Positions 2,357-32,700 of a DNA stretch of 64,000 bases are shown here, piece after piece. The DNA lies in the NCBI GenBank assembly GCA_015233405.1, contig JADFXT010000002.1, forward strand, positions 68,451-132,450, given 5' to 3'. Under the pieces are notes generated by a model. That model did not search any database. It was not told where the DNA came from and saw only the letters and a program-made list of their open reading frames with translations. The stretch is from Candidatus Omnitrophota bacterium (GTDB lineage: Bacteria; Omnitrophota; Gorgyraeia; Zapsychrales; Zapsychraceae). A program made the position numbers and the translations under genes. How positions within the stretch are numbered: position 1 is the first letter of the stretch; every line of letters begins with the position of its first letter.

Positions 2357-3826
2357 TTATATGAACTTTATTTTTCGGGCGGCAAAAAACACCATCCGTA
2401 AAAGCAGCCAACCGTGTTTCCAGCGTTGAATATTCGTGGTGCCGTATTTGCGTTCCCGGTATCGGATGGGCAGGTCAACCATCTTAAGATTCAATTTTGC
2501 GGCGCCAAAAATCAGATCGAAGTCTCCAAACGGGTCGAAGTCGCCAAAATATTTTCGGTTTTCAAGGATTTTTAAATAGTCCTCTTTTCTAAGCACTTTT
2601 GTCCCGCAAAGGGTGTCTTTGATATGTTGACCAAGAAGCCAGGAAAAAGCGAAGCTAAAGAATTTATTGGCCAGAAGATTTAAAAATCGCATGGCTTGTT
2701 TTTCCATTGGGTAGACCAGGCGCACGCCATTGACGAAATCTGCTTTTCCCGACGACAGAATAGTATAAAATTTCTCCAGGTCTTCCGGCACAACGGTTAT
2801 ATCGGCATCAAGGATCATGAGGATCTCCCCGCTGGCTTTGGAAAATCCATGCCGGACCGCATCTCCTTTTCCTTTTCCCGGTTGGCGAAACAATGCGGAC
2901 TTTTGGCCAGGAAATTCCGGGATCAATTTTTCGATTGTTCCATAGGTGTCATCTGAGGAATGCCCTTCGACAAAGATGAGCTCAGTCCCTTTTCCCATTT
3001 GAGGAGTGCGTTCAAAGATTTCCCGCATGTTCCCGGCTTCGTTGCGGGCTGGCACGATGACGGATACGGATATCTGTTGGGAATTGTCAGCAGTAGACTC
3101 TAGCGAACTGTTTGGTTTTGCAATAATGAAATTCGTCAGCGCCAGTGAGTTAAAAGGGAAAATTTTGACAAGATACCGGTTAAGAAAAGCGCTTAACAGC
3201 GGAATTGGAAACGGACATAAAATTTCCTGAGATGAGCGGATGACTTCAAAACCCGCGAGTGACAAAAGATTTCGTAGGTCTTCTTGGGTTAACCAGTTTT
3301 GCGGTAATGTCGGTCTAGCGAGTTTGAGCGCCTTGGCTAAAGATAGCGGCTTTTCCCAAATCCGGCTGTAAAAGTTAAGGATGATTCGTGTTTGACGATG
3401 GGAGACTTTTTTTATTTCTTCAAAAACCCTTTGGACATCCCAAAGGTCATTGACGAGATCGGAAAGAATAATAAAATCAAACGTTTCATTTAAATTTAAA
3501 TTGTGGGCGTCGCAAATTTCAAATCGGATGCCGGGATGTTTGTCTTTAGCTTTCGTGATCATCTCCGGTGAGAAATCGATGCCTACGCCATACGAAGGAT
3601 TTAAGGCCTTCAACAAGTCCCCTTCCCCGCTGCCGATTTCAAGAACACGGCTTTGAGGAGGGATGGAAAATTGATAAATTTCTGCCAGGCGTTTTTGGTA
3701 ATATTTCCCTAGCCCTCTTCGGGAAGATTCGTCGAGGATGATTTTTTCCCAATGTTTGATTCGGGTTTCGGTGTATTGTTTTTGGCTTTCGTCGGCGTAT
3801 GGATTGTTTTTAAGATGAACAGTCAT
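2357..3826 (-). CDS. fusion protein: class I SAM-dependent methyltransferase (N-terminal) plus family-2 glycosyltransferase of the polyprenyl-phosphate-sugar synthase (DPM1/GtrB/ArnC-like) type (C-terminal)
   Basis: N-terminal half carries SAM motif I, VLEIGSGEGDLL. C-terminal half carries VSVIVPARNEAGN, DDT, ILDADITV and a PIRYRERKYGTTNI tail, which are typical GT2_2 signatures. Confidence 0.75.
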   Translation of the reverse strand: MTVHLKNNPYADESQKQYTETRIKHWEKIILDESSRRGLGKYYQKRLAEIYQFSIPPQSRVLEIGSGEGDLLKALNPSYGVGIDFSPEMITKAKDKHPGIRFEICDAHNLNLNETFDFIILSDLVNDLWDVQRVFEEIKKVSHRQTRIILNFYSRIWEKPLSLAKALKLARPTLPQNWLTQEDLRNLLSLAGFEVIRSSQEILCPFPIPLLSAFLNRYLVKIFPFNSLALTNFIIAKPNSSLESTADNSQQISVSVIVPARNEAGNMREIFERTPQMGKGTELIFVEGHSSDDTYGTIEKLIPEFPGQKSALFRQPGKGKGDAVRHGFSKASGEILMILDADITVVPEDLEKFYTILSSGKADFVNGVRLVYPMEKQAMRFLNLLANKFFSFAFSWLLGQHIKDTLCGTKVLRKEDYLKILENRKYFGDFDPFGDFDLIFGAAKLNLKMVDLPIRYRERKYGTTNIQRWKHGWLLLRMVFFAARKIKFI

Positions 3827-3837: not shown

Positions 3838-4587
3838 TTATAAGGATTTTTTAGCGAAGAAATCAATATAAAACAAATCATCGATTTTTTCTCTTGTCAG
3901 ATTTTCTTTCTTAAAATTATTTTCAAATTCAATTTTAAATCCTAGCGTTTCCAAGAAGTTTAAATAATCGCCGGGTTCGATTCCGGATTTTTTTAAGCCC
4001 GAAGGGGAATATTCCCCGACCATGGCGACATTAGCTGACCTTTGTATCGTTTTCTCCATGCCTTTCATGGCGAAATATTCAAACCCTTGAATATCGATCT
4101 TGATGAAGTCCACTCTTTGATTCTGGCTAAGATAGTCGTCGATGGCGATACAGGCAATCTTTGTCTTTTTTCGGTTCTCGCCAGAATCATAAGTTTTACA
4201 ATCGACATTAAGAGTTTCCGAGTGGTAAAGAAACAAATCTCCGCTTTTTTCGCCGACCGCTGCGTTATTCAAAATGACGTTGTCGAGCCCTTTCGTATTC
4301 TTTTTTAGATAAGAAAAATTAAGAGCGTCAGGCTCAAAGGCATGGACTTTCCCCTCTTTTCCAACCAGTTTTGAAAACAAAATGGTGTAATATCCGATAT
4401 TCGCTCCGATATCAAGCACGGTCATGCCGGGCTTAATGATTTTAGTTAATTGGTCGATCTTCTCTCTCTCGCTAATCCCTTTATAAAGAAAATACGCGGG
4501 CTTATATAAAAAGAAAAGCCTCCTATATAGGACGACGTTGATTATTTTACAGACGAAGAAATGAAATTTATACCAAAAGGAATTCAT
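3838..4587 (-). CDS. FkbM-family methyltransferase
   Basis: VLDIGANIGYYT...VHAFEPDALNFSYLKKN...VILNNAAVG matches the FkbM (TIGR01444-like) pattern. Its start overlaps the upstream stop by 4 nt. Confidence 0.75.
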   Translation of the reverse strand: MNSFWYKFHFFVCKIINVVLYRRLFFLYKPAYFLYKGISEREKIDQLTKIIKPGMTVLDIGANIGYYTILFSKLVGKEGKVHAFEPDALNFSYLKKNTKGLDNVILNNAAVGEKSGDLFLYHSETLNVDCKTYDSGENRKKTKIACIAIDDYLSQNQRVDFIKIDIQGFEYFAMKGMEKTIQRSANVAMVGEYSPSGLKKSGIEPGDYLNFLETLGFKIEFENNFKKENLTREKIDDLFYIDFFAKKSL

Positions 4588-6059
4588 TGTGTTGTTCGCC
4601 TTTTATAGAGTTTAACGGGTCCTGCCCCGGCGACTTCTTTCCATTGTTTGAGGAAAGCGTCCAATTTATATTCTGTATAGACGGGATCATTGTTAAGGCC
4701 GTCTTGAATCCAGGTATCATCAAAATTAATAAGAGCATATTGGACATTATAAGGTGTTTTAAAGGGCTTGCCTGTATTAAAAACGTTTAGTTTTATAAGG
4801 TCTGGTTCTTGATAATCTTTCGAATAGATTTTATGGATAGAGTACAGGTTGTTTCTTAGTGATAAAGCCGGAAGAAACTCAAAAGTGGTTATGACTGAGG
4901 CATTCGGCGGGATCATGGAAACGAGCGACCATTTCTCATTAACATAATGATTCGCGTCGAAGCCAATTTTATGCTTTATTTGGCCGCGATGAGGATAAAG
5001 ATTTAATAAGGACGCACCCAATAAAAATAAGCAGAACAGTGTGTGGAATGATGGCCAACGTTTGATCTTTGTTAGAGTTTGAATGGCAGCTAAAAAGATG
5101 ATGGGTGTCATTGTCAAAGAATAAGAATAAAAGATTGTCTTTTCAGGAAAGTGGCTTGAAATGAGATGATAAGCGATCACAGGAGATATTAATGAAAGAA
5201 CTGTAGGACTTAAAATGGCTGGAAGAAGCAGTGCGCCAAACAATTCTTTTAAGAAATCAATGTTCGCTGGAAGTAAGAAAATCCCTTTTAAAGTGCGGAA
5301 TTGAAATAGCTTGTGAAGAATGTCTTTTGGCGTCGAGCCCAAGTAGCTAAAACGGACCCACAACGAGCTTTGTTCCATCCCTCGGAAATGAGGAATAATA
5401 AATTTTGCCGCAATAAGAAAATAACAAAAAGAAATTGCTAGAGGAACTACTCCCCACTTTATACGGTTTCGATCCTGCGCAAATATTCCCCAGAGGCTGA
5501 GCATCCCAACAATGAGCGGCATATTTTCTTTAATCAGAAAAAGAAAAATGATGCTGACAAAGTAGCCGCCCAAATTTTTCTTTCTATAAGAATAAACAGC
5601 TAGTAATAAGAAAAAAGGAGCTAACGACTCGGGATTGCAGTCATGGCACATGGCAAATAAATTCGGAGGAAATACTAGATAGGTCAGTGCGATGATAAAC
5701 GCGGGAAGTTTGCCTAAGCCTTCTTTGGCGATAACATACAACAGGAAAACCGATGAGATGAACAAGGCGATCTGGATAAATGAAAATGTCAGCGGATGAG
5801 GAAATAGCATAAAAATGGGCAAGGCAAATAAGTTAATGAACGTTGAATGGTCGCCGAAACAATTGAATCCATAAAGCGATGAGAATAATTTTCCGTGGGA
5901 AAGGTTCCAGAGGCATTGGTTCAAGAACGCCATGTCCCAGTCGTCATAAGCGAAATGAATATATCTATAGAGGATAAAAAATGCGTAAAGAAAGAAACCG
6001 ACCAGGCACAGCAGGACTATCGACCGATTTTCTTCATAAAATGTTAATAATCTTTTCAA
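4584..6059 (-). CDS. polytopic membrane protein, DUF2079-like putative GT-C glycosyltransferase
   Basis: 491 aa and multi-TM. The first loop, YDDWDMAFLNQCLWNLSHGK, resembles the DUF2079 signature D.g.fdQ..W....G. A soluble C-terminal domain follows. Confidence 0.5.
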   Translation of the reverse strand: MKRLLTFYEENRSIVLLCLVGFFLYAFFILYRYIHFAYDDWDMAFLNQCLWNLSHGKLFSSLYGFNCFGDHSTFINLFALPIFMLFPHPLTFSFIQIALFISSVFLLYVIAKEGLGKLPAFIIALTYLVFPPNLFAMCHDCNPESLAPFFLLLAVYSYRKKNLGGYFVSIIFLFLIKENMPLIVGMLSLWGIFAQDRNRIKWGVVPLAISFCYFLIAAKFIIPHFRGMEQSSLWVRFSYLGSTPKDILHKLFQFRTLKGIFLLPANIDFLKELFGALLLPAILSPTVLSLISPVIAYHLISSHFPEKTIFYSYSLTMTPIIFLAAIQTLTKIKRWPSFHTLFCLFLLGASLLNLYPHRGQIKHKIGFDANHYVNEKWSLVSMIPPNASVITTFEFLPALSLRNNLYSIHKIYSKDYQEPDLIKLNVFNTGKPFKTPYNVQYALINFDDTWIQDGLNNDPVYTEYKLDAFLKQWKEVAGAGPVKLYKRRTTQ

Positions 6060-6075: not shown

Positions 6076-7938
6076 TTAGTTTTGATGGTTTTTATGAAAT
6101 ACCCGATGCGTCCAGAAAAGCATAATAAATGGAGTTGCCCTTAAAAATAGCCTCGAGAGGACTTCGGGATAATATAATTTTAAGTCTTGCGATGGCCAGT
6201 TGATGCCTGCTGTTAATGAGAACAGAATGAGCAATGTCATCATGGAAAATAAAAATGTGTCTTGCTTCTCCCATTGCTTTTGTTGATTGCTCGACAGCAT
6301 AAATGCGACTCCTAAAATAATAGGAATGATAGACGATGGCGTTAAGAATGTCCAGACCATATTTAGCATGATCAAAATATTTTCCGTTGAGAAATGTTTT
6401 TGAAGGTGAAAAATATACGTCGAAACGCCGTTATTGTGAAGCCACAGCAGCCATCCTAGCGGGATTAAGAAAATAGCTCCAAACGAAACGCCCAGCATTA
6501 ATAATTTCTTTGGGGCAACCTCCTGTCGGCAGGATAAAAATAAAGATAGAAAACAAAAGAATGCAATGACCGCTCCTTCGAATTTTACGCCGCTTAGTCC
6601 GAGAAACATAAAGAAAGCTAAGGTCAATAACCGGTCATCTTTTTCTTTTAAGTTGATCCAGTTTAACAGGAAACCAGCGGCAGTCATTAAAAGTGCAAGG
6701 TATAAATTTTCAGGCAAGGCGGTAAGAAATATCCATTGGAAAAATACCAACAGGTAGACGCAGATAAGAATCTTAGATATGACGGGTTTAAAATTCCAAA
6801 AACTTAAGATCTTTTTTATTTGGGCGATAAAACATAAGAAAATAATAGCTGAGGTCCATTTGGCCGCTTCATCATAAGCGCCATTTAAGAAAAGAAATTG
6901 AACAGCATTATGGATGGGCCACAAGAGCGGATAATAGTTGTTGGCGTTCGAGGTATACTGAAAATCTAGATGTCCTTGATAAAAGAATATTTTGGCTTTG
7001 AGTAGCCATATCCACATTTCATCGACGACAGATATAGGGATAGAAATTGTTTTAAGAAAGATGACGATTAATAATGCGGCATAAAAGAAATGAGCCAAAG
7101 ATTCCCCAAAGAAAGATTTTGGCGCCGCGCCATTGCCGCCTCCTTTTTCTTCTAAACAAAAAGGTGCCGTTTGTCTTTTTCTTCTTAAAAAAAAGATTAT
7201 TCCGGAAAGGCCCCAGAGACCAATAACGGTTTGTTTTGTTAGCGTGCCTCCGATTAAGAGAAATATCCAGACGAGGAAATTGAGAAAGACAAAGCCTAAC
7301 AAATAAGATGTTCCCCAAAGCCAGAATTTATCTGTTTTTTGAGGAAGAATCCCAAAACTCGTCAGCATAAAAAAGCCGATAAGGCTGATAAAAGCGGTTA
7401 TGAGAAAGAAAATAATGATGTTTTTTTGTAAGGGATAGCTCGACGGGCTTTCTTTGGAGGATAAGAAGTTGTGGCCTTCTTGAGCAAATAGTCGAACGCC
7501 ATTTCCAAGCGGGAGTTCTTTAAATTGCTTAGACGAATTGTGGATCATCTGATGAAAATCAATGAAATAATCCCAGTTATCTCTAGAGAATTTGGCGGTG
7601 TTTGTCGGCGTGTAGATATTCGCGGATTCATCTTCTATTTTGAGCGGGTAAAGATTGTATTTTAAGCTGACCGACTCAAACGACATGGTTTTTGTTGGGA
7701 AAGATGTCTGGATTTTAGATTCCGCGGGGATAAGTCTTTTTGCTGATGTCCCGATGCGGTTAATAAAATAATCATTTCGGACGTTCTCATAATTCCCTTT
7801 TAAAGAAATCAACGTTCTCGTAATGATTGAAGCCGTTTCTTCGTTGATTATCTTTAAAGATTGGTTGTATAAGTAGATTGTCGCTAGAAGAATAAGCGCG
7901 ACGGATAAGATATTTCTAAATCGGCGGTTTTCAATCAT
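6076..7938 (-). CDS. large polytopic membrane protein of unknown function (N-terminal anchor, extracytoplasmic domain of about 150 aa, then about 12 TM helices)
   Basis: 620-aa ORF with strong hydrophobic periodicity. I recognise no family motif. Its operon context suggests a role in glycan assembly. Confidence 0.45.
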   Translation of the reverse strand: MIENRRFRNILSVALILLATIYLYNQSLKIINEETASIITRTLISLKGNYENVRNDYFINRIGTSAKRLIPAESKIQTSFPTKTMSFESVSLKYNLYPLKIEDESANIYTPTNTAKFSRDNWDYFIDFHQMIHNSSKQFKELPLGNGVRLFAQEGHNFLSSKESPSSYPLQKNIIIFFLITAFISLIGFFMLTSFGILPQKTDKFWLWGTSYLLGFVFLNFLVWIFLLIGGTLTKQTVIGLWGLSGIIFFLRRKRQTAPFCLEEKGGGNGAAPKSFFGESLAHFFYAALLIVIFLKTISIPISVVDEMWIWLLKAKIFFYQGHLDFQYTSNANNYYPLLWPIHNAVQFLFLNGAYDEAAKWTSAIIFLCFIAQIKKILSFWNFKPVISKILICVYLLVFFQWIFLTALPENLYLALLMTAAGFLLNWINLKEKDDRLLTLAFFMFLGLSGVKFEGAVIAFFCFLSLFLSCRQEVAPKKLLMLGVSFGAIFLIPLGWLLWLHNNGVSTYIFHLQKHFSTENILIMLNMVWTFLTPSSIIPIILGVAFMLSSNQQKQWEKQDTFLFSMMTLLILFSLTAGINWPSQDLKLYYPEVLSRLFLRATPFIMLFWTHRVFHKNHQN

Positions 7939-8029: not shown

Positions 8030-8989
8030 TCACAATTTTTTAAGCCAGGCTTGGTTGTTTGTATACCACAGGATCGTTTCTTTGATCCCGTCTTCAAATG
8101 AGGTTTTTGGCTGCCAACCTAATTTACGGATCTTAGAGCAGTCAATGGAATATCGAAAGTCATGGCCGGGGCGATCTTTCACAAATTTAATCAAACGTTC
8201 ACTTTTCCCCATGAGCTTTAAAATAGTTTTAGCTGTTTCGAGGTTTTTTTTCTCAAAATTGCTGCCGATATTATAAATTTCTTTTAACGCTCCCTTTTTT
8301 AAAATTGTAAGGATCCCGTCGGCACAATCTTTAACATAGAGCCACTCTCGAATCTGTTCTCCCTTGCCATAAACAGGAATGGGCTGGTTCTTTAAAATTT
8401 TAGAGATTACCACAGGAAGAAATTTTTCAGGATATTGCCAGGGGCCATAATTATTCGACGGGCGAACGATGGTCGCAGGGAAATCGTGCGTCAAGATGGC
8501 CGCATGCACCAGGTGTTCCGCTGAGGCTTTTGTCGCCGAATAGAAATTGCGCGGTTCTAGCGGTGAAGATTCTTTAAAAAATCCTGTAAGGCTTTGGCCA
8601 TAAACCTCGTCGGTTGAGATATGAATAAATTTTTTGATATTAAATTCTTTGGAAAGCGTGATCAAATTATAGGTGCCTAAAATATTTGTCTGAAGAAATG
8701 GTTGGGCGTCCAGGATGCTTCTATCCACGTGCGTTTCTGCGGCAAAATGGATGATTTCATCGGGACGTTCTTTCGCGAACACGGATTTTAAGACGGAAGC
8801 GTTACAGATATTGATTTTGTAAAAGGAAATATCTTTTAGAACATCTTTAAGCCGCTCTTTTCTTCCGGCATAGGTCAAAGCATCAACGACGATGACTTTG
8901 TATTTCTGAAGGACCGCTTGCCGGACGAATTCGCTACCGATAAATCCAGCGCCGCCGGTCACTAATATTTTACGTATTGAGCCACGCAT
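8030..8989 (-). CDS. rfbB: dTDP-glucose 4,6-dehydratase
   Basis: Carries the [10 protein letters not shown] Rossmann motif, HISTDEVYG, YSATKAS (YxxxK) and a C-terminal PGHDFRYSID motif typical of RmlB. Confidence 0.9.
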   Translation of the reverse strand: MRGSIRKILVTGGAGFIGSEFVRQAVLQKYKVIVVDALTYAGRKERLKDVLKDISFYKINICNASVLKSVFAKERPDEIIHFAAETHVDRSILDAQPFLQTNILGTYNLITLSKEFNIKKFIHISTDEVYGQSLTGFFKESSPLEPRNFYSATKASAEHLVHAAILTHDFPATIVRPSNNYGPWQYPEKFLPVVISKILKNQPIPVYGKGEQIREWLYVKDCADGILTILKKGALKEIYNIGSNFEKKNLETAKTILKLMGKSERLIKFVKDRPGHDFRYSIDCSKIRKLGWQPKTSFEDGIKETILWYTNNQAWLKKL

Positions 8990-9792
8990 TCTTTTAAAAC
9001 CTCCTTAATATTTCGGACGGGAAAGCCTGATTTTGCGAGTTTGTCGACGGACAAGATAAGATTCGTGCGATTTAACTTTAATTGTTTTAGGCGAATCACT
9101 TCATATTGGAAGTCCGGCACCACCTGTTTATAGGCGCGCATTAATTCTGGATACCGTAATCCTCCCCGGCAGGTAACATTATAAATTCCTTGAGCATCAA
9201 TGCGAATTAAGTGCTTAAGCGCTTTTACAAAATCCGGAATATAAGTCGCGGAGTTCGGGGTATCAATGACTTTTTTATAGTTGATCAATTTTGTCAGAAG
9301 ATTTCGTTTGTCCGGATAAATATCCAATGGCACGCGGATCCGGATGGTTAAAATGTTGCACTTTTTTGACAACGTATTAAGTATTTGTTCTGCATAGATT
9401 TTTGTCCTGCTATAAAATAACGTGTAATAATCAGGCATCCTGGTCTCAGCGATCGGTTTTTGTTTGCCGTAGGTATAATTGTAAATACAGCCGCTACTGA
9501 TATGGACCAGCTTAATATTGTTTCGAAAGGCTATTTCTCCAAGCCACGTCGGGAGAAAAGTATTTGCCGTTAAAGTTTTATCAATGTCCAACTCGCAATC
9601 ATCCACGTTATTAATTCCCACATGACCGATGCAATTGACAAGGACTTTGGGCCGATACTTCTCTATTTCTTTCTGAATGTCGGCGTAAGAGGATATTCTT
9701 TTTTCGGACAGCGGGCAGCCCCATTCCTGATGAAGCCTTTTGCCGATAAATCCGCCGCCTAAAATAAGGATTTGATTATTCATTTTCCGCAA
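8962..9792 (-). CDS. NRS/ER-like NDP-4-keto-6-deoxyhexose 3,5-epimerase/4-reductase (SDR); alternatively an atypical RmlD
   Basis: Carries [40 protein letters not shown] and [14 protein letters not shown]. As I recall them, these match the plant/viral NRS/ER blocks ATGCIFEY, FYSKTKAMVEE, RVRMPIS and VVDIPNSMT far better than the E. coli RmlD blocks STDYVF, VYGKTKLAGE and RTSWVY. Confidence 0.65.
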
Positions 9793-10642
9793 TCCTTTCT
9801 AAATATTCCCCATAGGAAGAATGCAAAGGGCTCGAGAGCTTAAGGAGTTGATTCTTTGTGATATATCCCATGCGATAAGCGATTTCTTCGACGCACCCGA
9901 TTTTAAGGCCTTGGCGTTCTTCGATGATTTTTATGAACAAAGATGCGTCGAGCAAGGAATTGCACGTTCCTGTATCAAGCCAGGCAAATCCGCGCCCGAA
10001 GAGTTCTACGTTTAATTTTTTTCTTTTAAGATATACTTGATTGAGGTCTGAGATTTCCAATTCGCCCCGTTTGGATGGTTTTAATGTTTTAGCGATCTTA
10101 ACGACATCGTTGTCATAAAAGTAGAGCCCGGTCACCGCCCAATCGGATTTAGGGTTTTCCGGTTTCTCGACGATATCAATGGGTTTTCCTTTTTTATCAA
10201 AATAAACAACACCATAGCGCTTCGGGTCTCTGACTTTATAGCCGAAAATGGTCGCACCTTCCTTAAAGTTTTTATTTTTGTTGAGTAGTACGCCAAGCTT
10301 GTCGCCATAGAAAATATTGTCGCCTAAAATAAGCGCAACTTGATCGTTGCCGATAAAGTTTTCCCCGATGAGAAATGCCTGGGCGATTCCTTTGGGTTCT
10401 TGCTGCGGCAGGTAGGAAATGTGGATGCCCAGAAATTTCCCGTCGCCAAACAGATTCTGGAAATTGACAAGGTCTTTCGGGGTAGAAATGATCAAAATTT
10501 CACGAATGCCTGCTAAGAGAAGAACCGATAAAGGATAATAGATCATGGGCTTGTCATAAACTGGCAGCAATTGTTTGCACACACCTTTGGTGATGGGATA
10601 CAATCGCGTCGCCTTCCCTCCTGCGAGAATAATGCCTTTCAT
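9776..10642 (-). CDS. rfbA: glucose-1-phosphate thymidylyltransferase
   Basis: [18 protein letters not shown]...[17 protein letters not shown] is the canonical RmlA N-terminus. The 288-aa length fits the family. Confidence 0.9.
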
Positions 10643-10656: not shown

Positions 10657-12366
10657 TTAATTGAATTGCTTAAAGCGCAAGCCGTTTTTATGTAAGACGA
10701 ATTTAAATAGTGTTTTAAGAATGTTGAGCCCATAAACAATGGACGGCCACAATTTTATCGACGAGGCTTCATCAAAATAACGCGTGCGGATAGGAACCTC
10801 TTCGAATTTCATGAATTTCAAAACGCCCTGGACAATGATCTCGGTATCAAAAACAAATCCATCGGAGTCGGCTTCAAAGTTTACGCTGGTTAAATACTTG
10901 CGGCTATACGCTCGAAATCCGGAATGATATTCCGTTAAATAAATCCCTAAGATGACATTTTCAAGCGCAGTTAAAAGAATATTGGCATTGTATTTCCAAT
11001 TCGGCATACCGCCTTCTAAGGCGCTTCCCTTCATCATGCGTGAGCCAAACACGGCATCGGCTTTTCCTTGTAAGATCGGTTCGATGAGCCGCGGAATCGC
11101 TGTCGGGTCATATTGATAGTCCGGGTGGACCATGACCACAACGTCGGCGCCTAATTCCAAGGCTTTTTTATAGCAAGTCTTTTGATTCCCTCCGTAGCCT
11201 GTATTTTTTTCATGACGAAAGGCTTTTAATCCTAAGCGCTTCGCCTCTTCCATCGTGTTGTCTTTGCTGACATCATCGACCAGAATAATATCGTCCACAA
11301 CATCTTTAGGAATATCGTTGATGGTGATTTCTAAAGTTTTTGCCGCATTATAGGCCGGAAGAACAACGACGACTTTCTTTTTTTTGTTTTGGACTTCTTG
11401 TTCTTCAGGAAGTTCTAATTCATGGAGATATTTCATTTGTCGGCTTTTACGCGCAAAGATCTCTATTTGATCGCCTAAGTCAAAGCTGATGGACATGTTT
11501 GCTAATTTAGGATGACGGTTTAAAAAGGTATTGATAAATTTTAAGGACGTTTTATAAGCGGTCAGATTTGAGAACCAATATCCGAGGGAAAAAGTCCTGG
11601 CATGGGAACGTGTCTTGATAGGGAAAAATCCCGATGCGATAAGAAGCTTCGATAATGTGGATTTGTTAAAATAGTAAAGGTGCGACTGCTTGATCCCCCA
11701 CCATTTGGCTTTTAATACGCGGCTAATGAGGCTGTTAATGTCTGGCGTATTACAGCAAATGACCCCGGAGGGTTTTAGGATCTGCCGGATCTCTTCAAGG
11801 ATCTCTTTGGGGTCCGTCAAATGTTCGATAACATCGGTCATAACCACAACGTCAAAAAAGTTTCTGGGAAATTGGGCTTGTTTAAGAGTCCCTTGTGTAA
11901 TATTGCTTAAGCCCAGTTTTTCTTTGGCATATGTCACTGCCCAAGAGGACAATTCAACGCCGTAAACTTCCCATCCTTGTTTGCGGGCCTCATCGAGGAA
12001 GAATCCTGACGCGCAGCCGATATCTAGTAGGCGGCCGCCCGGTTTTATTTTCTTAAGATATTTTAAAATGAAACGAGCAGAACTTCTGCGGCCTTCTTGC
12101 TCTTGGACATATTTTTCATCGATCATGCCAACGTAATTATCCGTGATTGTTTCTAAATCGAGGCGAGGATTAAGAAAAGAAAGCCCGCATTGACGGCAGG
12201 AAACAATGCGGATAGGCGCACCAACGGCATGGTCGGTTATTTTGTAATTTTCCGGTTTGAATTCTTGGTCAGTTTTTAAACTGTCATAGATAATCTGATA
12301 AGAATTGCTTCCACATAAATGACAACGGACTTCATCGAACATGAACCTCTCCTTATTTGGCGGCAT
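10657..12366 (-). CDS. fusion protein: Zn-ribbon plus class I SAM methyltransferase (N-terminal) and family-2 glycosyltransferase (C-terminal)
   Basis: The CHLCGS...CRQCG pair forms the Zn-ribbon. [12 protein letters not shown] is SAM motif I. Then come [32 protein letters not shown] and [13 protein letters not shown], which are GT2 signatures. Confidence 0.75.
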
Positions 12367-13822
12367 CTATTTTAGAGGCAAGCTTGGTTAAAATATAGAC
12401 CATAATACCTAAATAAAGTAAAAGTGGCAACAAGGTTAATAAAGATAAAGCCGGATTGCTTAGCCATCTTGAAAAACAGTTTATAAGGAAGAATCCCAAG
12501 TTAAAGCTTATTCGGCCGTTTAAAATCGCCGGCAGGCACCAATCCTGTAACGGTCGGGCAATTAAATGGGGAATAAATTCAGGATTGACGGCTGTTCCCA
12601 TTAAAATATAAATAAATGAGATCAACGCCAGCGCCTTAAAAAGAAGCAACATAAAAGGACGGTGTGAGAATCCGTTTAAAAAAAAGATTATCGGAAATGT
12701 TAAGAATGGCAAAATAGGAATCAGATAGCGCGGCCCAAAGCACCATCCTGAATACCAACCGAAGTAAGAAGAAAACCATAAGATATACGCTAAAGATAAG
12801 AATGTAAGTAAAATCCCCTCTTTTCTCAGTTGGCGTTGGCGAAAAAGAAAGCATAATCCAACAAAGGCAAGTGCCAAGAATGGAGAAAAATAAAAAAGTC
12901 CTCTATAAGGGCTGAAGGTGATTCCATATAAGTGCGCGACGTTAAAGGAACTAATGTTAATCCCAAATATGCCCTGTTTTGTTTTTGCATAATATTCCGG
13001 GAACCAGCAGTAATTATACCCAAGATGAAAAATGTTTTGAAAACACAATTTGTTGAAGATAAAAAGAGGAATTAATGACAGAAAAATGCCAAGTCCATAG
13101 TAAAGCAGCTTCTTTTTTTGGTCCAGGATCGTCGTCAGATAGACGCTTAATCCGATTAAGATTAGCCCTGTTTGATATTCACTGATAATCGAGTAGCCGG
13201 CTAGAATACCTGCTAGTAATAACGGAAAGTTTTCAAAAGCTTTTTTCCTCTTCATGTCGAAAATCATCCCGAAGCTTATGAAGCTGCATATTGCAGCGAT
13301 ATGGTGCCCATGAAAAAGAGTTGAGTAAGGGAATGCTAGCGTCGCCAAACCATATGCTAGGGCAAGCCAAAGTGCATAAATTGTTTTTTTGGCGAAAGAA
13401 TTGATGAATCTAAAGAAATAAATAATAAAAAGAGCCGATGGCAAAGAAACCGCCAGCAGAGTTATCAATGATGTAACAAACGTATTATTGGGGTCTTGAG
13501 GTATTGGTAGATGCAGGATGTTTGCTGCTGATTTGATAATAAAATAAACAGGGATTCCAAGGAATACTCCGCCGGGAGCTTTATCAAGATAAAAATGTTC
13601 TTTGAAATAAGCTTTGTCTCCGGTGTTCTCATGATAATCGTCAATTTGTAAGGTCCCTTTTTCAGCTACGGCATAAACAAAATCAAACCTCACCGTCGTC
13701 CCCCATCCTCCTCTGCCTTGAAGAAAATAGGCGTAAGCAAAAAAGATCGTACAAAACAACAATATTTCGATTCGCTTTTGTAAATTCATAGATTTAAGCA
13801 TCAATTCGCGTTTTTTGTCCAA
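12353..13822 (-). CDS. polytopic membrane protein, putative GT-C glycosyltransferase
   Basis: 489 aa and multi-TM. The first extracytoplasmic loop is acid-rich, with IDDYHENTGDKAYFKEHFYLDKAPG (compare the DKPP motif of ArnT/PMT_2 proteins). The gene overlaps both neighbours. Confidence 0.5.
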   Translation of the reverse strand: MDKKRELMLKSMNLQKRIEILLFCTIFFAYAYFLQGRGGWGTTVRFDFVYAVAEKGTLQIDDYHENTGDKAYFKEHFYLDKAPGGVFLGIPVYFIIKSAANILHLPIPQDPNNTFVTSLITLLAVSLPSALFIIYFFRFINSFAKKTIYALWLALAYGLATLAFPYSTLFHGHHIAAICSFISFGMIFDMKRKKAFENFPLLLAGILAGYSIISEYQTGLILIGLSVYLTTILDQKKKLLYYGLGIFLSLIPLFIFNKLCFQNIFHLGYNYCWFPEYYAKTKQGIFGINISSFNVAHLYGITFSPYRGLFYFSPFLALAFVGLCFLFRQRQLRKEGILLTFLSLAYILWFSSYFGWYSGWCFGPRYLIPILPFLTFPIIFFLNGFSHRPFMLLLFKALALISFIYILMGTAVNPEFIPHLIARPLQDWCLPAILNGRISFNLGFFLINCFSRWLSNPALSLLTLLPLLLYLGIMVYILTKLASKIDAAK

Positions 13823-15390
13823 ACATTGACAAATTCTTCATGAAAACCAATATGGTAGCCCAGTTTTATAAGAAATTCATCATAATTATCAGTAATGGTC
13901 AGGATAAATTTAGGGCGATATATTTGCAGATAATCTTTTAGATTCAAAAGCGTGACGCTTTTCTCCGGCGGTAAAGACACGGTCGGTCGATTAAGTGGAA
14001 AAATGCCTTGAATATGGTCGGTGGCAATTAGATCTGTTGGCGTCGAATGCTCTTCGATAAAGTGAAAGGCGGTCAGGTCTTGTTTTTTATAATCTTCCTG
14101 CTGAAGGACAAATTTTTTGTCATAAAAGTAAATATTGCCATGAAATACATCCTTCATATAAATGGTCAGCAGAATTGTGACAGAAATAAAGAAAATGGTT
14201 TTTGGGTGGATGAATTTAAATCGTTCTTTGAGAATTTTTCCAATGCCTTGTGTCAGAATTAAAACAAGAGGAATAATGGCCACATAGGGTATTAAAGAAT
14301 AACGTAAGATTTCAATTTTCGACAGGAAATAGAAATTTAATGAATAGCCAAAGATGTTGCCAGCGAGCAGCATCAGCAGAATAATTTCAACAGGATTTGT
14401 TTGATAAAAAATGTAGAAAATGATCGGGATAATAAGAAAGGACATCCCTCCTAATTGATCAAGAAAATCTTCGATGTGGTGAGGCACGTTATGGATAAGG
14501 AGCGAAAGTTGATCCAGCGTATTTCTTTCAGGCATGTTAAGAATGGGCGTCCCTGCTGTTTTATAATAGGCCCCGGGAAATCTTTCCGCTAAGTTGAACG
14601 TATACGCTGCCCGGGAATACGCGGGATAGAATTCATGGTATCTCAATACGCAAAACAGCTCATACAAAAATAGCGGCAGGACAAGCCCTAAAAAGAACAA
14701 AAACAATGATCTTTTGTTTATGTTTTTAACAAGATGATGAATAAAAAGTAGCGCTAATAAAATAGAAAAAATGACGTAAAGATTGGCGAAGCGTGTTAAA
14801 CAGTTGATGGATGATATGGCGCCGGCAATAAACATTTTCTTCCCGCTCTCCGTTTCCAGCCCGGAGAGCAGAAATAATAGGCTTATCAGTAAAAGAAAAA
14901 GATGAAGTTGCTCCGTCCAGGGGAAGACTGATGTATGGATCATCGACGGACTAATTCCTACCAGAATCGCTGACCAGAACGCTAAACTCGGATTGAATCT
15001 TTTATGTAAAAGTCCATAAAGAATAACGGAATTTGCCGCTGAGAGAATAACGTTAAAGATGTTTATGGCTGCGATACTTTTAAAGATATAGAAAATAGGA
15101 ATGATGACGATGCTAAACAATGGTTGCATATAGGGCAAGGCCGGATAAAAGACGTTGCCGGACCATTTTTGATAAAGATTGTAGGAAATGACCGGTCCGT
15201 GCCCGGAAAGGATATTACGCATGATGTCCAGATAGCCGCAGGCATCTGCAGTAATCCTTCCAAATGATGCAGGAAGAATCTTAGAAAAAAAACATAAAGA
15301 AAATATTAAAAGGATATTAAGAAAGATTGAGGAACGGTTTCGTTCTCTTTGATTCTTGGACATATGTGTTTTTGGGCGGTTTAATGGCAT
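13801..15390 (-). CDS. ArnT/PMT_2-like GT-C glycosyltransferase (paralogue A)
   Basis: 529 aa. The first loop is RITADACGYLDIMRNILSGHG. Shared blocks with the next gene are YMQPL, WTEQLHL, RFANLY and RPTVSLPPEKS. Confidence 0.55.
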   Translation of the reverse strand: MPLNRPKTHMSKNQRERNRSSIFLNILLIFSLCFFSKILPASFGRITADACGYLDIMRNILSGHGPVISYNLYQKWSGNVFYPALPYMQPLFSIVIIPIFYIFKSIAAINIFNVILSAANSVILYGLLHKRFNPSLAFWSAILVGISPSMIHTSVFPWTEQLHLFLLLISLLFLLSGLETESGKKMFIAGAISSINCLTRFANLYVIFSILLALLFIHHLVKNINKRSLFLFFLGLVLPLFLYELFCVLRYHEFYPAYSRAAYTFNLAERFPGAYYKTAGTPILNMPERNTLDQLSLLIHNVPHHIEDFLDQLGGMSFLIIPIIFYIFYQTNPVEIILLMLLAGNIFGYSLNFYFLSKIEILRYSLIPYVAIIPLVLILTQGIGKILKERFKFIHPKTIFFISVTILLTIYMKDVFHGNIYFYDKKFVLQQEDYKKQDLTAFHFIEEHSTPTDLIATDHIQGIFPLNRPTVSLPPEKSVTLLNLKDYLQIYRPKFILTITDNYDEFLIKLGYHIGFHEEFVNVWTKNAN

Positions 15391-15448: not shown

Positions 15449-17038
15449 TTATTTTTTTAGCGGATTGTACACTGCTCCCTTTTTGATTCGTAAAAGCCTA
15501 AATGTTCTGTTTGAGAAAATTTGTTCATGCGGGATTCGATTAAAACATTCATTTGATGTATCTGAGGAAAGAAGATAATAATCTGGGGCGTAAATTTTAT
15601 TATAGAGGTTAAGATTATGACAATTATAAGATTCCCCGGGCGGTAAAGAAATAAACGGGCGGTGCATCAGATAGGCTTCTTGGTTTTCGTCGGAAGCCAC
15701 TAAAATTTCTTTGGGTAGGTTTTGGTCGATCCAGCTAAAACTTTTCAGAAAATCTTTATAATAAGGGGATTTTGTTTGAGGGTAATTTATTGCAAAAGGA
15801 TAAAGAATCCGTTGTATTCGAGCGTAATAGCTCTGTAGGGATAAAAAGGTCAGGACAACCAGAACGCCGATGGCAAAAAGCTTCCTCCATTTTTTAGGGG
15901 AGCGGAAGAAAAGTTCATACAAACAAAGCCAGCCGGCCAGGGCGGTTAGAATATGGGGAATCAATGCATAGCGTAAATAATCAAGCCAATCAAGAAGAAA
16001 AGAATATCCTACAATGACAAAAAGGCTTTGACAGAGGCAGTTGAGGATAAAATAACGTTGCTCGATGTTTTCGCGGGGTATTCGGAAAGCCAATGCTAAA
16101 GGAATGGCGAACAAGGAAAGGTGAAGTAGAAAATTTTTCATATGATCAAGAAAAAATGATTGGTGTTTAACGGCTGCCAAGGCCGTCGGTGGAATACAAA
16201 TTCCTGGCGGAAAACGATATGTTGCTAGAGCTGTTTTACTTGCGTAGTAATAATTTGCCCCGGGCTGTGCGTATTGAGGATACAGCGAGTGGAAAAAAAT
16301 TAAATTGAGCAATTCATATGATCCGAAGATAAGAATAAATCCGCTGGAGAAAGATATCAAAGATTTCAATCTGTCTCGAAATGGCTCCCTTCCCTCCTGT
16401 CCGATTAAAATGACCAGAATATACGCAGCGAAATTGTAAAGATGCGCGAATCTGACCAACATCATCAGGCCGTTTAATGCGCCCAACCAAAAAAGGATCC
16501 GTCGGTGGGCGGAAAATTTTATAAAAAGAATAAAGCTTATGATAAACAAAAGAAGATGCAATTGTTCCGTCCAGCAGGCCAGAGCAGAAATAAAGAAATG
16601 AAAAGAGAATATTAATGAGAACAAGAACAAAATGTTTAAACGAGTACGGATAAGGCTTTGAAGAAGAAAGAAAATCAGGGCGGAATTTATTCCTAAAATA
16701 AAAATATTGACGCGAATGACTTGGGTAATTCCTCCATGAGTAACAAATAAGGAGCATAAAATTGGATAAAGCGGCTGCATATACGGCCAAAGCGGGTGAT
16801 ATAATCCCGTAAAACAGTGGTAGAAATTATAACTGACGACAAATCCTTTGTGGTTGGCGATATTTTCCGCGATGTTTAGATAGGTGCTTCCATCGGCGGT
16901 GTTCCATCGCATAAGGGCAAAATCGGCGAAAAAAAGATAGACTCCGATAACGATAATGGAAAAGATAAAGAATGAAGGAGAAAACCGTTGAAAGAATTTT
17001 CTGAGGTTGCTTTCAAAATAGGCCATTAACTTTTCCAA
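15449..17038 (-). CDS. ArnT/PMT_2-like GT-C glycosyltransferase (paralogue B)
   Basis: 529 aa. The first loop is RWNTADGSTYLNIAENIANHKG. Shared blocks are YMQPL, WTEQLHL, RFAHLYN and RPFISLPPGES. Confidence 0.55.
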   Translation of the reverse strand: MEKLMAYFESNLRKFFQRFSPSFFIFSIIVIGVYLFFADFALMRWNTADGSTYLNIAENIANHKGFVVSYNFYHCFTGLYHPLWPYMQPLYPILCSLFVTHGGITQVIRVNIFILGINSALIFFLLQSLIRTRLNILFLFSLIFSFHFFISALACWTEQLHLLLFIISFILFIKFSAHRRILFWLGALNGLMMLVRFAHLYNFAAYILVILIGQEGREPFRDRLKSLISFSSGFILIFGSYELLNLIFFHSLYPQYAQPGANYYYASKTALATYRFPPGICIPPTALAAVKHQSFFLDHMKNFLLHLSLFAIPLALAFRIPRENIEQRYFILNCLCQSLFVIVGYSFLLDWLDYLRYALIPHILTALAGWLCLYELFFRSPKKWRKLFAIGVLVVLTFLSLQSYYARIQRILYPFAINYPQTKSPYYKDFLKSFSWIDQNLPKEILVASDENQEAYLMHRPFISLPPGESYNCHNLNLYNKIYAPDYYLLSSDTSNECFNRIPHEQIFSNRTFRLLRIKKGAVYNPLKK

Positions 17039-18183: not shown

Positions 18184-18753
18184 TTAAGGTTTGAGTGCTC
18201 GTGTGGAATAAACGCATCCACAATAGTTTTGTTGATAAAAGTGTTCGCGCGCTGTGACAGCCAAACTTTTTTGCTGGCCGCCCTCTTTTCTCCAATTGAA
18301 ATCCCAGAATAGGAGATTAGGATATTGGCTGGCGGCCCGCCGGCCGCTTGCATGAACTTGATTGATATCTTTCCACCTAGAAATGCTTAAAGAGGTGGCA
18401 AATAGGTTAAACCCGTTGTCCTGTGCGTACAAAGCACTGCGGACTAATCGCATATCAAAACAAACGCTGCAACGCTTTCCTCTCTCCGGTTCTTTTTCTA
18501 AACCCGTAACATTTTTAATCCAGAGATTTTGATCATAATCTCCGTCGAAGAATGGGACGTTATTTTTTTGGCAGAATCGGACTACTTCTATCTTTCGCCG
18601 TTCATATTCTTCTTTGGTGTCGATATTGGGATTATAAAAGAAAACGGTCATTGTAATTCCGGAATCCAAAAGCCTTTCAATAATGCCGCCACAACATGGG
18701 GCGCAACAGCAATGGAGTAAAAGTTTTTTCGCATTGTTCGGGAGCGTTAACAT
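18184..18753 (-). CDS. queH: epoxyqueuosine reductase QueH (DUF208)
   Basis: The LLLHCCCAPCCGG N-terminal cysteine cluster and the YCGCVYS C-terminal motif match the family, as does the size of about 190 aa. Confidence 0.8.
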   Translation of the reverse strand: MLTLPNNAKKLLLHCCCAPCCGGIIERLLDSGITMTVFFYNPNIDTKEEYERRKIEVVRFCQKNNVPFFDGDYDQNLWIKNVTGLEKEPERGKRCSVCFDMRLVRSALYAQDNGFNLFATSLSISRWKDINQVHASGRRAASQYPNLLFWDFNWRKEGGQQKSLAVTAREHFYQQNYCGCVYSTRALKP

Positions 18754-19598
18754 GATTTTAACGCCTCGGGAATAAGGTCGAGGATATCCGTCGGGATGAG
18801 TGAGATTTTTCCTCGTTTTTTCGCCGCCAAATCTCCGGCCTTGCCATGAATATAGGAGCCAAATTTAGCTGCATCAAAGGCGGATAATCCTTGCGCGACA
18901 AAGGCGGCAATGATCCCGGTTAAGACATCTCCGCTTCCTGCTTTGGCCATGCCGGCATTGCCGGTTTTATTGATATACGTTTTCCCATTGGATGATGCGA
19001 CAACGGTGTGATGTCCTTTTAGCAATAAAGCGCAGTGAAATTTTTTAGCAAAAATGAGGGCAATCTTCCGACGATCTTTTTCGACCTGATCTTTGGATAA
19101 ATCGGTCAACCTTGCCATTTCTCCAGAATGGGGAGTTAGAATTTTGGGAGTTGACGTTTTAATCAAGATGCTTGGATTTTTACTGATGGCGTTTAAGGCG
19201 TCGGCATCAATCACCAAAGGCTGTGTTGCTTTTTGGATCAAGGTGAAAATAAATTTTTGAGTGCTTAGGTTTATTGAGAGGCCTGGGCCTAAGGCAATTA
19301 CGGAATATTTGGTTAATTCTTTGGAAAGCTGAAGGAAGGCTTTATCGCTTATGGTCCCTTCTTTTGTTTCTTTTAAAGGAAACGTCATAACGGAATGGTT
19401 GATTTTCTTTTGGAGCGTTGTGTTAAGGCTTTCCGGGACGCCGACGGTGATAAGTCCTGCTCCACTACGCAGTGCCGCCAGGCTTGTTAAGGCCGCAGCT
19501 CCGAGCATACGCTTGGAACCGGCTAAGATAAGGACATGGCCGAAAGAGTTCTTATGGACGTGAGGATTATTTCGTGACAATTGCGTTGGCAACTGCAT
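18747..19598 (-). CDS. nnrD: ADP-dependent NAD(P)H-hydrate dehydratase (YjeF C-terminal type)
   Basis: Carries KNSFGHVLILAGS, LTPHSGEMARL and GNAGMAKAGSGDVLTG, the carbohydrate-kinase-like Nnr signatures. Confidence 0.8.
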   Translation of the reverse strand: MQLPTQLSRNNPHVHKNSFGHVLILAGSKRMLGAAALTSLAALRSGAGLITVGVPESLNTTLQKKINHSVMTFPLKETKEGTISDKAFLQLSKELTKYSVIALGPGLSINLSTQKFIFTLIQKATQPLVIDADALNAISKNPSILIKTSTPKILTPHSGEMARLTDLSKDQVEKDRRKIALIFAKKFHCALLLKGHHTVVASSNGKTYINKTGNAGMAKAGSGDVLTGIIAAFVAQGLSAFDAAKFGSYIHGKAGDLAAKKRGKISLIPTDILDLIPEALKSC

Positions 19599-19917
19599 AG
19601 TTATGGGTATGCGATAGGGAAATCAAGACCTTATGTTTGAAATTTTTTTTATTGATGAGGCAATAAGGTTTACCATTTTTGTCATTGAGGATCTTGATAT
19701 TTTTCCAGCTGATATCGGTGGTGTCTTTCAAGGCTTTATAAACGGCTTCTTTGGCGGCGAACCTGACGGCATAATGCTGTATAGGGTTCTTATTTTTTTT
19801 GGCGTAGGCAATTTCTTCTTTTAAAAAGATATGCTTTAAAAAGTCGTCGCCCCAACGATCAATGGCTTTCTTAATGCGGCTGAGCTCGATAATATCAATC
19901 CCGATTCCGATGATCAT
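19567..19917 (-). CDS. acpS: holo-[acyl-carrier-protein] synthase
   Basis: MIIGIGIDIIELSRI...FAAKEAVYKAL...ISLSH is the classic AcpS pattern. The adjacency to pdxJ is conserved, as in E. coli. Confidence 0.85.
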   Translation of the reverse strand: MIIGIGIDIIELSRIKKAIDRWGDDFLKHIFLKEEIAYAKKNKNPIQHYAVRFAAKEAVYKALKDTTDISWKNIKILNDKNGKPYCLINKKNFKHKVLISLSHTHNYAVANAIVTK

Positions 19918-20636: not shown

Positions 20637-20727
20637 CGAAATTTCTCCATGTTGACAAAGACCCATGTGATGACGGCTAAGAATAAAGCGACCAATTTCA
20701 ACGTTAAATTATGTGTGAGGATTTTCT

Positions 20728-22394: not shown

Positions 22395-22397
22395 AGT

Positions 22398-24338: not shown

Positions 24339-24441
24339 TTTTGCTCCAATACTAAAAGTAAAAATATTAATAAAAATTTATTTCTTTAGCTTATAGATTA
24401 TAGCTAAAGTCTTGATTAATTCAACATCAAAATCATTGTGG

Positions 24442-25416: not shown

Positions 25417-25428
25417 GAAGTCCTCTGA

Positions 25429-25983: not shown

Positions 25984-26034
25984 TTTAGGTCCCTTCTATT
26001 TATGCGCCAGCTGGAGGGTTAAATCCGGTAGGCT

Positions 26035-32397: not shown

Positions 32398-32700
32398 TTA
32401 AGTATAGAAAATGATGTAAAGAAGCAGAGCGATGAGGATTCCGGCTAACAAGTAAAAGTCGTTAAAATAAAAGAAGTCTTTGACCCTATCTATGGGAGAG
32501 TGCGGATATTCCAGGTTTTCTTTGACGACGTGCCCGCTATTACGCAGGGATAAAACCTCCGCTTTTTTAAGGCGCAGGAATTTATTGGCAATCCGGTAAG
32601 CCTGAAGTTTCTTTTCTTCAATCAGGTCCATGACCTTTTTTTCGGTTATGCCTAAAAGTTGCGCGGTTTCCCGCACGGATATGAATTGGGATGTTGACAT
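32398..32700 (-). CDS. excisionase-type HTH DNA-binding domain with a C-terminal transmembrane anchor
   Basis: The N-terminus, ISVRETAQLLGITEKKVMDLIEEKKLQAYRIANKFLRLKKAEV, fits the HTH_17/excisionase pattern. The C-terminal LLAGILIALLLYIIFY is a TM helix. Confidence 0.6.
   Translation of the reverse strand: MSTSQFISVRETAQLLGITEKKVMDLIEEKKLQAYRIANKFLRLKKAEVLSLRNSGHVVKENLEYPHSPIDRVKDFFYFNDFYLLAGILIALLLYIIFYT

Follow-up and report, generated by a model that had tools for sequence, protein, structure and literature searches.

What could an enzyme do that combines a zinc ribbon, an S-adenosylmethionine (SAM)-dependent methyltransferase and a family 2 glycosyltransferase (GT2) in one polypeptide, and that is encoded between genes for large membrane proteins? 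This question is raised by a gene on the minus strand of contig JADFXT010000002.1 (assembly GCA_015233405.1) of a Candidatus Omnitrophota bacterium. We analysed a stretch of 64,000 nucleotides of this contig, termed the window, in which the gene (here called fusion 1) occupies positions 10657-12366; a second methyltransferase-GT2 fusion (fusion 2) is located at 2357-3826. We propose, with a probability of about 0.5, that fusion 1 makes a methylated lipid-phosphate sugar for transfer in the periplasm by a glycosyltransferase of the GT-C fold. The gene has the following parts, with amino acids (aa) numbered here and below as in the 569-aa reading frame:

10657-12342, minus strand: fusion gene of zinc ribbon, methyltransferase and GT2, 561 aa (exact match to MBF0521784.1; alignment of 39 orthologous sequences)
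12187-12324, minus strand: Cys4 zinc ribbon with C15, C18, C57 and C60 (conservation, alignment with the Cys pairs of MtmC, shuffle test)
11437-12087, minus strand: class I SAM methyltransferase core plus helical extension, aa 94-310 (motif I LLDIGCASG; conserved E138, D172, E181-H182 and H229)
10762-11376, minus strand: GT2 domain of the GT-A fold, DPM1/ArnC-like, aa 331-535 (D364-D365, H414-P415-D416-x-Q418, G441-S442-R443, TRYFDE 528-533)
10687-10752, minus strand: C-terminal hydrophobic amphipathic helix, aa 539-560, putative monotopic membrane anchor (AlphaFold2 model; hydrophobic moment about 0.4, mean hydrophobicity about 0.45)

Integrity and conservation of the fusion gene

Positions 10657-12366 form a single intact open reading frame (ORF) of 569 aa with an ATG start, free of N bases and of internal stop codons. 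A preliminary description of the sequence had reported a CxxC...CxxC ribbon, a SAM motif I and a GT2 domain in this ORF, and all of the quoted motifs are indeed present: CHLC at aa 15, CRQC at aa 57, a stretch of 12 residues at 113 and another of 12 residues at 335, VDDVSKDNT at 363 and HPDYQYDP at 414. Pfam recovers both enzymatic domains, with Methyltransf_23 on aa 94-247 (100.8 bits, cutoff 27) and Glycos_transf_2 (PF00535) on aa 334-492 (73.2 bits, cutoff 23.3); Methyltransf_11, _12, _25 and _31 each exceed their own cutoff as well. A CxxC-(20-60)-CxxC pattern within the first 80 aa was reproduced in 0 of 20000 protein shuffles, and the ribbon is therefore not a product of chance.

Translation probably starts at the ATG at 12342 instead, giving 561 aa. 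We prefer this start because a ribosome-binding site (GGAGAGG) lies just 5' of it, with the stop codon of the upstream gene 10 nt earlier, because all aligned orthologues begin at the equivalent position, and because the 561-aa product is identical to NCBI entry MBF0521784.1. The ATG at 12366 would add 8 codons overlapping the stop of the upstream gene. The NCBI entry, situated on a 217-kb contig, is labelled 'methyltransferase domain-containing protein [Candidatus Omnitrophica bacterium]'; the sequence is thus already public, without an assigned function. In the 90%-identity protein collection a 55-aa fragment represents its cluster, and for this reason the homologue search gave no 100% match for fusion 1. 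Scans for promoters and terminators revealed nothing above chance.

The protein search recovered over 120 clusters of proteins about 560 aa long, with 58-73% identity to fusion 1, all of them with methyltransferase and GT2, and belonging to Candidatus Omnitrophota wherever named. An alignment of 39 orthologues runs from end to end and crosses the junction of the domains without a gap; residues of the linker are conserved as well (R306, R309, E316, E318). The four cysteines are conserved in these orthologues and invariant in 41 stand-alone relatives. In the SAM site G117, G121 and D172 are invariant and D115 and E138 nearly so; E181-H182 and H229 are likewise invariant or nearly so, and the core set G117, G121, E181-H182 and H229 is invariant also in the stand-alone methyltransferase relatives. 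On the GT2 side the same degree of conservation was found for D364-D365, H414-P415-D416-x-Q418, G441-S442-R443 and T528-R-Y-F-D-E533.

In principle, two genes, one for a methyltransferase and one for a GT2, could have been merged into such an ORF by a frameshift or during assembly, all the more as adjacent separate genes for the two enzymes do occur in some genomes (loci L010 and L011). We reject this explanation and leave it a negligible probability: the ORF is continuous and without N bases, GC content is uniform along the gene, an identical protein has been deposited at NCBI, and full-length orthologues, independent of each other and drawn from many samples, number more than 120 and are gap-free through a conserved linker. 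These findings speak against a stop or join between the domains, which the preliminary description had named as the event that would undo the fusion. We conclude from these sequence comparisons that fusion 1 is a genuine gene under selection.

The AlphaFold model of the whole protein has a pLDDT of 85.7 and a pTM of 0.67, the latter suggesting that the relative orientation of methyltransferase and GT2 in the model is uncertain. The methyltransferase part of the model agrees with the Rossmann-like fold of class I enzymes. Zero transmembrane (TM)-like segments were predicted in the protein. The C-terminal amphipathic helix is conserved in the GT2 subfamily.

Relatives of the two halves

A search of 1.84 billion representative sequences yielded 1828 proteins at E <= 1e-30, the best 150 of which were classified with profiles of the two halves. 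This set contained 76 GT2s alone (about 240-270 aa, 50-62% identity), 53 zinc-ribbon methyltransferases alone (about 300 aa, 38-58% identity), 8 fusions in the order methyltransferase-GT2 and 13 in the reverse order, and most of the reversed fusions retain both CxxC pairs, now in the middle of the protein. Separate adjacent genes for methyltransferase and GT2 are found in L010 (Zixibacteria), L011 and L052 (both Omnitrophota), L053 and L058. Both fusion orders together with split pairs are a classic signature of two enzymes in one pathway, and therefore argue for consecutive action of the methyltransferase and the GT2. We also collected 84 loci of the GT2 subfamily of fusion 1 from many phyla, 80 of them genome loci ranked with the full-length query, a ranking that favours loci containing a methyltransferase. 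A methyltransferase is fused to the GT2 or lies within two genes of it in 24/84 loci, compared to 17/499 control positions.

For the methyltransferase half, Foldseek with the AlphaFold2 model returned the sugar C3-methyltransferases TcaB9, MtmC and KijD1 as best matches in the Protein Data Bank (PDB; E ~1e-13, 13-15% identity). A profile of this half matches the same three proteins at ~1e-13 over the zinc and SAM domains, and they are the only matches that cover the zinc-ribbon region. In a weak alignment the four cysteines of fusion 1 coincide with C13, C16, C56 and C59 of MtmC, and the family-invariant Y78, H182 and H229 fall on MtmC Y77, H182 and H226. By coordinate offsets via this weak alignment, the latter three correspond to Y76, H181 and H225 of TcaB9 and are thus three of the five residues mutated in deposited TcaB9 structures (Y76, H181, Y222, E224, H225). 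General class I methyltransferases dominate the sequence matches, including phosphoethanolamine and phospholipid N-methyltransferases and UbiG, and the Pfam model Methyltransf_13 is not significant on fusion 1 (E = 0.14). Judged by its sequence, the methyltransferase half would work like a sugar methyltransferase with a histidine base, yet it stands outside the TcaB9/MtmC/KijD1 family.

For the GT2 half, a profile that included its stand-alone relatives was searched against the PDB. It matched the dolichol-phosphate mannose synthase (DPMS) of Pyrococcus furiosus at 1e-21 over profile positions 3-200, followed by three ArnC structures (~1e-11 to 1e-10), GpgS (1e-6) and GtrB (7e-6). The top NCBIfam models for this half are AglJ, PpgS and the dolichyl-phosphate hexose transferase. 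In the alignment, the DADLQH motif of P. furiosus DPMS stands opposite HPDYQY of fusion 1, with D416 at the place of its second Asp and Q418 at that of its Gln.

Membrane partners and the gene island

Members of the GT2 subfamily are closely linked to large membrane proteins. A same-strand polytopic membrane protein of at least 330 aa with at least five TM-like segments is immediately adjacent in 42/84 loci, compared to 54/623 control genes at the same loci (odds ratio 10.5, p = 1.5e-18). Pfam analysis of 64 such neighbours recovered PMT_2 in 12, DUF2079 in 8, YfhO in 6, PMT in 3 and GT87 in 2, so that about half match families of GT-C type; a further 6 carry LPG_synthase_TM, the flippase-related membrane region of lysyl-phosphatidylglycerol synthase. 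Methyltransferase, GT2 and GT-C occur together in several phyla with DUF2079, PMT_2 or YfhO partners, and in methyltransferase-containing loci outside Omnitrophota the partner is PMT_2 or YfhO. In the window the surroundings of fusion 1 comprise the following genes:

15449-17038, minus strand: paralogue of 13801-15390, probable GT-C, 529 aa (phmmer 1e-35; 8 TM-like segments; below the PMT_2 threshold)
13801-15390, minus strand: PMT_2-type GT-C membrane protein, 529 aa (Pfam PMT_2 4.9e-11; 10 TM-like segments)
12353-13822, minus strand: predicted GT-C fold glycosyltransferase, directly upstream of fusion 1 (AlphaFold2 pLDDT 93, pTM 0.93; Foldseek)
9776-10642, minus strand: RmlA, glucose-1-phosphate thymidylyltransferase, directly downstream of fusion 1 (TIGR01207 448.7 bits, cutoff 360.65)
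8962-9792, minus strand: divergent short-chain dehydrogenase/reductase (SDR), 276 aa, weakly RmlD-like, candidate 4-ketoreductase (TIGR01214 38.9 bits, cutoff 224)
8030-8989, minus strand: RmlB, dTDP-glucose 4,6-dehydratase (TIGR01181 414.6 bits, cutoff 365.1)
6076-7938, minus strand: polytopic membrane protein, 620 aa, between rmlB and the DUF2079 gene (no Pfam or NCBIfam match; 11 TM-like segments)
4584-6059, minus strand: DUF2079 membrane protein (Pfam 5.7e-53)
3838-4587, minus strand: FkbM-family methyltransferase (Pfam/NCBIfam)
2357-3826, minus strand: fusion 2, second methyltransferase-GT2 fusion, without zinc ribbon and with a classic DAD motif, 489 aa (Pfam methyltransferase and GT2; identical to MBF0521777.1)
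686-2353, minus strand: polytopic membrane protein, weakly PMT_2-like (PMT_2 5.4e-4, below cutoff; 9 TM-like segments)

The preliminary description had connected the fusions with GT-C enzymes encoded downstream. GT-C-type membrane proteins do lie near both fusions, here and elsewhere, but three of the six polytopic genes are upstream of fusion 1 and three downstream. The nearest one, at 12353-13822, is annotated as 'hypothetical protein' HQL24_01890 and has no Pfam domain. Its top Foldseek matches in the PDB are all GT-C enzymes, namely ALG12, STT3, AglB, ArnT, PglB, ALG9, Pmt4, DPY19 and AftB, and D61 and D69 in its first loop are invariant. By its predicted structure this protein represents an unannotated GT-C family; 212 proteins belong to it at E <= 1e-10, some with C-terminal TPR repeats. 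Several of the best-matching GT-C enzymes take lipid-phosphate monosaccharides as donors. The polytopic protein at 6076-7938 is a candidate for a further divergent GT-C or for a flippase.

Genes for homologues of the DUF2079 protein (phmmer 2e-41 to 2e-59) immediately precede the fusion, or the split pair, in L001, L004, L005, L006 and L011, and four of these five loci are labelled Omnitrophota or Omnitrophica. In L001 and L005 the DUF2079-fusion pair follows the genes for CdaA-PdxJ-AcpS-NnrD, in L005 also with FtsH-FolP. The window has the same upstream synteny, FtsH-FolP-CdaA-PdxJ-AcpS-NnrD, at 18184-26000 on the minus strand, with QueH, GT9 and an extra glycan island inserted there. This tightly packed island of about 17 kb, with gaps of at most 91 nt, follows the syntenic region in the order QueH, GT9, three GT-C-type genes, fusion 1, rmlA, SDR gene and rmlB, then the polytopic protein without family, DUF2079, the FkbM methyltransferase, fusion 2 and another polytopic protein. 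From gene order, the DUF2079-fusion core pair looks like a conserved housekeeping function of the envelope in Omnitrophota that was expanded in this genome.

RmlA and RmlB of the island would provide a dTDP-sugar. This is probably not L-rhamnose, because the SDR reaches only 39 bits with the RmlD model and the scan of window ORFs turned up no RmlC. At the other loci, rml genes stand beside the fusion in L003 only, RmlB-like genes were found in L015, L036 and L076, and the divergent SDR has no homologue in 88 other loci. Since rml genes and SDR so rarely accompany the fusion, the link to a dTDP-sugar appears to be specific to this cluster.

Fusion 2 was expected to share the architecture of fusion 1. 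This is true for methyltransferase and GT2, which both proteins have, but not for the ribbon, since fusion 2 has three cysteines in total and no CxxC motif. The two proteins are only 22% identical over 474 aa. As had been supposed, they are not recent duplicates but independent: in its methyltransferase half, fusion 1 shares 54% identity (345 bits) with stand-alone zinc-ribbon methyltransferases, compared to 25% over 123 aa (40 bits) with that of fusion 2, and in its GT2 half 61% (300 bits) with stand-alone GT2s, compared to 22% (31 bits) with the GT2 of fusion 2. Each half is nearer to unfused proteins than to the other fusion, and we therefore conclude, by sequence identity, that the fusions arose separately. 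The family profiles of both fusions do align collinearly (probability 99.1); this match reflects shared domain families only, and a single ancestral fusion is rejected by the half-by-half identities.

All 8000 scored candidates of the fusion 2 family were significant and come from several phyla, and members are at least 60% identical across four or more phyla, including Omnitrophota, Chloroflexota, Acidobacteriota and Deltaproteobacteria, a striking conservation for a glycan enzyme. Together with the orthologue clusters of fusion 1, these numbers do not allow the architecture to be called unusual, as the preliminary description had it. That the architecture is functional, as also argued there, is supported; however, the presence of two copies in one operon is not the strongest argument. 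By sequence comparison the best one is conservation combined with the reverse-order and split versions. L003, from another Omnitrophota genome, likewise has both fusions, at a distance of three genes. Relatives of fusion 2 are preceded by a PMT_2 protein in L088 and by a polytopic protein in L086, with a small second methyltransferase downstream in both.

Elsewhere in the window, an Mfd-like ORF at 43135-45027 (minus strand; UvrB_inter, CarD_TRCF_RID, DEAD and Helicase_C) has a GTG start and only 630 aa. It overlaps a SurA-like gene (42194-43198) by 64 nt and may be truncated or of atypical architecture. Two plus-strand ORFs, at 28122-30542 (806 aa) and 32630-33331 (233 aa), run opposite to most genes and have no Pfam match at 1e-5.

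Proposed function and comparison with known systems

Periplasmic glycosylation by GT-C enzymes needs lipid-phosphate monosaccharide donors, which are made by DPM1-like GT2s such as ArnC, GtrB, PpgS and CsbB. In our proposal fusion 1 would be a bifunctional peripheral membrane enzyme at the cytoplasmic face of the inner membrane. Its GT2 domain, similar to DPM1, ArnC and GtrB, would take a single sugar from its nucleotide-activated form and load it onto polyprenyl (undecaprenyl) phosphate, and the zinc-ribbon SAM methyltransferase would methylate the same sugar, its substrate being either the nucleotide sugar just before this transfer or the lipid-phosphate sugar just after it. The methylated lipid-linked monosaccharide would then be flipped across the membrane and be used as donor by the neighbouring GT-C enzyme (12353-13822 here, DUF2079 in most Omnitrophota) to modify an envelope glycan, a lipid or a protein. 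Because SAM is cytoplasmic and GT-C transfer is periplasmic, methylation would have to precede flipping; for the same reason the earlier suggestion that the two fusions supply two differently methylated donors is plausible. What the sequences show is how the domains are arranged, that residues of catalytic type are conserved, that a Rosetta-stone pattern ties the two halves together, and that the gene is associated in genomes with large membrane proteins, often of GT-C type. From these observations we infer a polyprenyl phosphate as acceptor of the sugar and the sugar as acceptor of the methyl group, and any statement on the identity of the sugar, the position of the methyl group, the order of the steps and the final acceptor is of the same conditional kind.

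Several findings weigh against this proposal. The GT2 half scores far below the curated cutoffs of the named families, with 101.6 bits vs 325 for AglJ and 64.2 vs 370 for PpgS, and the ArnC cutoff of 529 is not reached. Because DPMS and ArnC are its closest relatives yet all curated cutoffs are missed, we class the GT2 half, by its scores, as a distinct unnamed subfamily of the DPM1-like kind that is outside every named equivalog. It carries HPD instead of the canonical DxD, with the His invariant in the subfamily, it has no TM helices, and Foldseek ranks the soluble GpgS over DPMS among GT2 structures (E ~1e-10). On the methyltransferase side, the positions of E224 and Y222 of TcaB9 are not conserved, and the sugar-binding C-terminal domain of TcaB9 (Methyltransf_14) has no Pfam match in fusion 1, where a helical extension and then GT2 follow. 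Lacking this domain and these residues, the methyltransferase cannot be assigned a substrate by homology. Moreover, 60/84 loci of the GT2 subfamily have no methyltransferase nearby, and the 29% that do are inflated by the ranking with the full-length query; the methyltransferase would thus be an accessory. No flippase gene is recognisable in the cluster. Finally, hhalign relates DUF2079 to the GT-C neighbour family with a probability of 55%, which is weak evidence for DUF2079 as a GT-C.

These points leave room for other functions. The GT2 might extend a lipid-pyrophosphate-linked glycan whose terminal residue is methylated by the methyltransferase, stopping elongation or marking the chain for export, in the manner of WsaE or WbdD. 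There is a characterised precedent in WsaE, in which an N-terminal methyltransferase is fused to glycosyltransferase domains and adds a 2-O-methyl cap to a rhamnan (PMC2943079), and rmlA and rmlB downstream of fusion 1 as well as the GT9 gene in the same gene run would fit. We nevertheless consider such a function unlikely: the GT2 half is nearest to synthases that load a single sugar onto polyprenyl phosphate and not to polymerising GT2s, its conserved partner is a large GT-C-type membrane protein, the cluster genes scanned gave no match to ABC transporters, Wzx/Wzy or initiating phosphoglycosyltransferases, and in L001 and L005 the pair sits amid housekeeping genes without other glycan genes. 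Similarly doubtful, in our estimate, is a methyltransferase that acts on a lipid head group, the polyprenyl carrier or a protein, or that has a structural or regulatory role, beside a GT2 that makes an unmethylated lipid-phosphate sugar. The dominance of general class I methyltransferases among the sequence matches and the fact that most members of the GT2 subfamily work without a methyltransferase would agree with it. The SAM-binding and candidate catalytic residues are conserved, however, their core set being invariant in stand-alone relatives; both fusion orders and the split adjacent pairs favour consecutive steps, and the only solved relatives with the same zinc ribbon are sugar methyltransferases.

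A GT2 of the GpgS or MpgS type would glycosylate a small soluble acceptor and the methyltransferase would methylate the glycoside, yielding a methylated compatible solute or a polysaccharide primer. Glucosyl-3-phosphoglycerate synthases are indeed the best GT2 structures in Foldseek, and fusion 1 has no transmembrane helix. We regard this function as very improbable, as the profile search prefers DPMS by 15 orders of magnitude, including the acceptor-side GSR region, the hydrophobic amphipathic helix at the C-terminus is conserved, and there is a strong association with large membrane proteins, of which many belong to the GT-C type.

The formation of a methylated lipid-phosphate sugar, which we prefer, can be made more specific for this genome. 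RmlA and RmlB would supply dTDP-4-keto-6-deoxyglucose, the methyltransferase would methylate its C3 as TcaB9 does, and the SDR at 8962-9792 would reduce the 4-keto group. The GT2 would then put the branched 3-C-methyl-6-deoxyhexose on polyprenyl phosphate for a periplasmic GT-C enzyme. Because most other loci lack this association with rml genes, we rate this extended route as quite unlikely. If it were true, it would be the first pathway to carry a branched-chain, or indeed any methylated, sugar on a lipid-phosphate monosaccharide carrier, and DUF2079 would thereby acquire a function.

We know of no characterised system in which a methyl group is added at the stage of the lipid-phosphate monosaccharide donor. 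A full-text literature search gave no description of such a methyltransferase-GT2 fusion, nor of a methyltransferase together with polyprenyl phosphate and GT-C, a search on DUF2079 gave nothing relevant, and one on TcaB9 only a review. If the proposed function is true, fusion 1 would stand for a modular route by which methylated sugars reach the cell exterior, DUF2079 and the unannotated GT-C family would gain a testable function, and the DUF2079-fusion pair in its syntenic housekeeping region would represent a conserved envelope modification of Omnitrophota. If it is not confirmed, fusion 1 would be one more uncharacterised bifunctional glycan enzyme.

Among known systems, the synthases of polyprenyl-phosphate sugars (P. 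furiosus DPMS/DPM1, ArnC, GtrB, PpgS and AglJ) resemble fusion 1 in the GT-A fold of their GT2 domain and in the D-D pair after beta-2. P. furiosus DPMS shares the metal-site Asp and the Gln (D416 and Q418 in fusion 1) and an aligned GSR motif, and PpgS is alike in size, with about 240 aa and no TM helices. These synthases work with GT-C partners (PMT/ALG enzymes, ArnT, GtrC, Rv3779), and a GT-C gene is adjacent to fusion 1 as well. They differ from it in that fusion 1 has HPD and, instead of TM helices, only an amphipathic C-terminal helix, and in the fused methyltransferase, which is present in no characterised enzyme of that group. TcaB9, MtmC and KijD1 have the same N-terminal Cys4 zinc domain followed by a class I SAM domain, but their C-terminal domain for the nucleoside diphosphate sugar is replaced by GT2 in fusion 1.

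WsaE of Geobacillus stearothermophilus, a methyltransferase with two rhamnosyltransferase domains, is similar in that an N-terminal SAM methyltransferase is fused to a glycosyltransferase and rml genes are in the cluster. It builds and caps a lipid-pyrophosphate-linked rhamnan in an ABC-transporter pathway (Wzm/Wzt), whereas fusion 1 has a single DPM1-like GT2 and GT-C-type partners, and no transporter family was matched in the scanned cluster genes. For the tailoring of a sugar on its lipid before flipping there are precedents in the deformylation of undecaprenyl-phosphate-linked Ara4FN (Und-P-Ara4FN) by ArnD and the epimerisation of decaprenyl-phosphate-ribose by DprE1/E2, and AglP methylates a dolichol-phosphate-linked glycan. 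These enzymes alter a lipid-bound sugar on the cytoplasmic side, ahead of its transfer by a GT-C enzyme or an oligosaccharyltransferase, but in no case is a methyltransferase fused to the very synthase of the lipid-phosphate monosaccharide.

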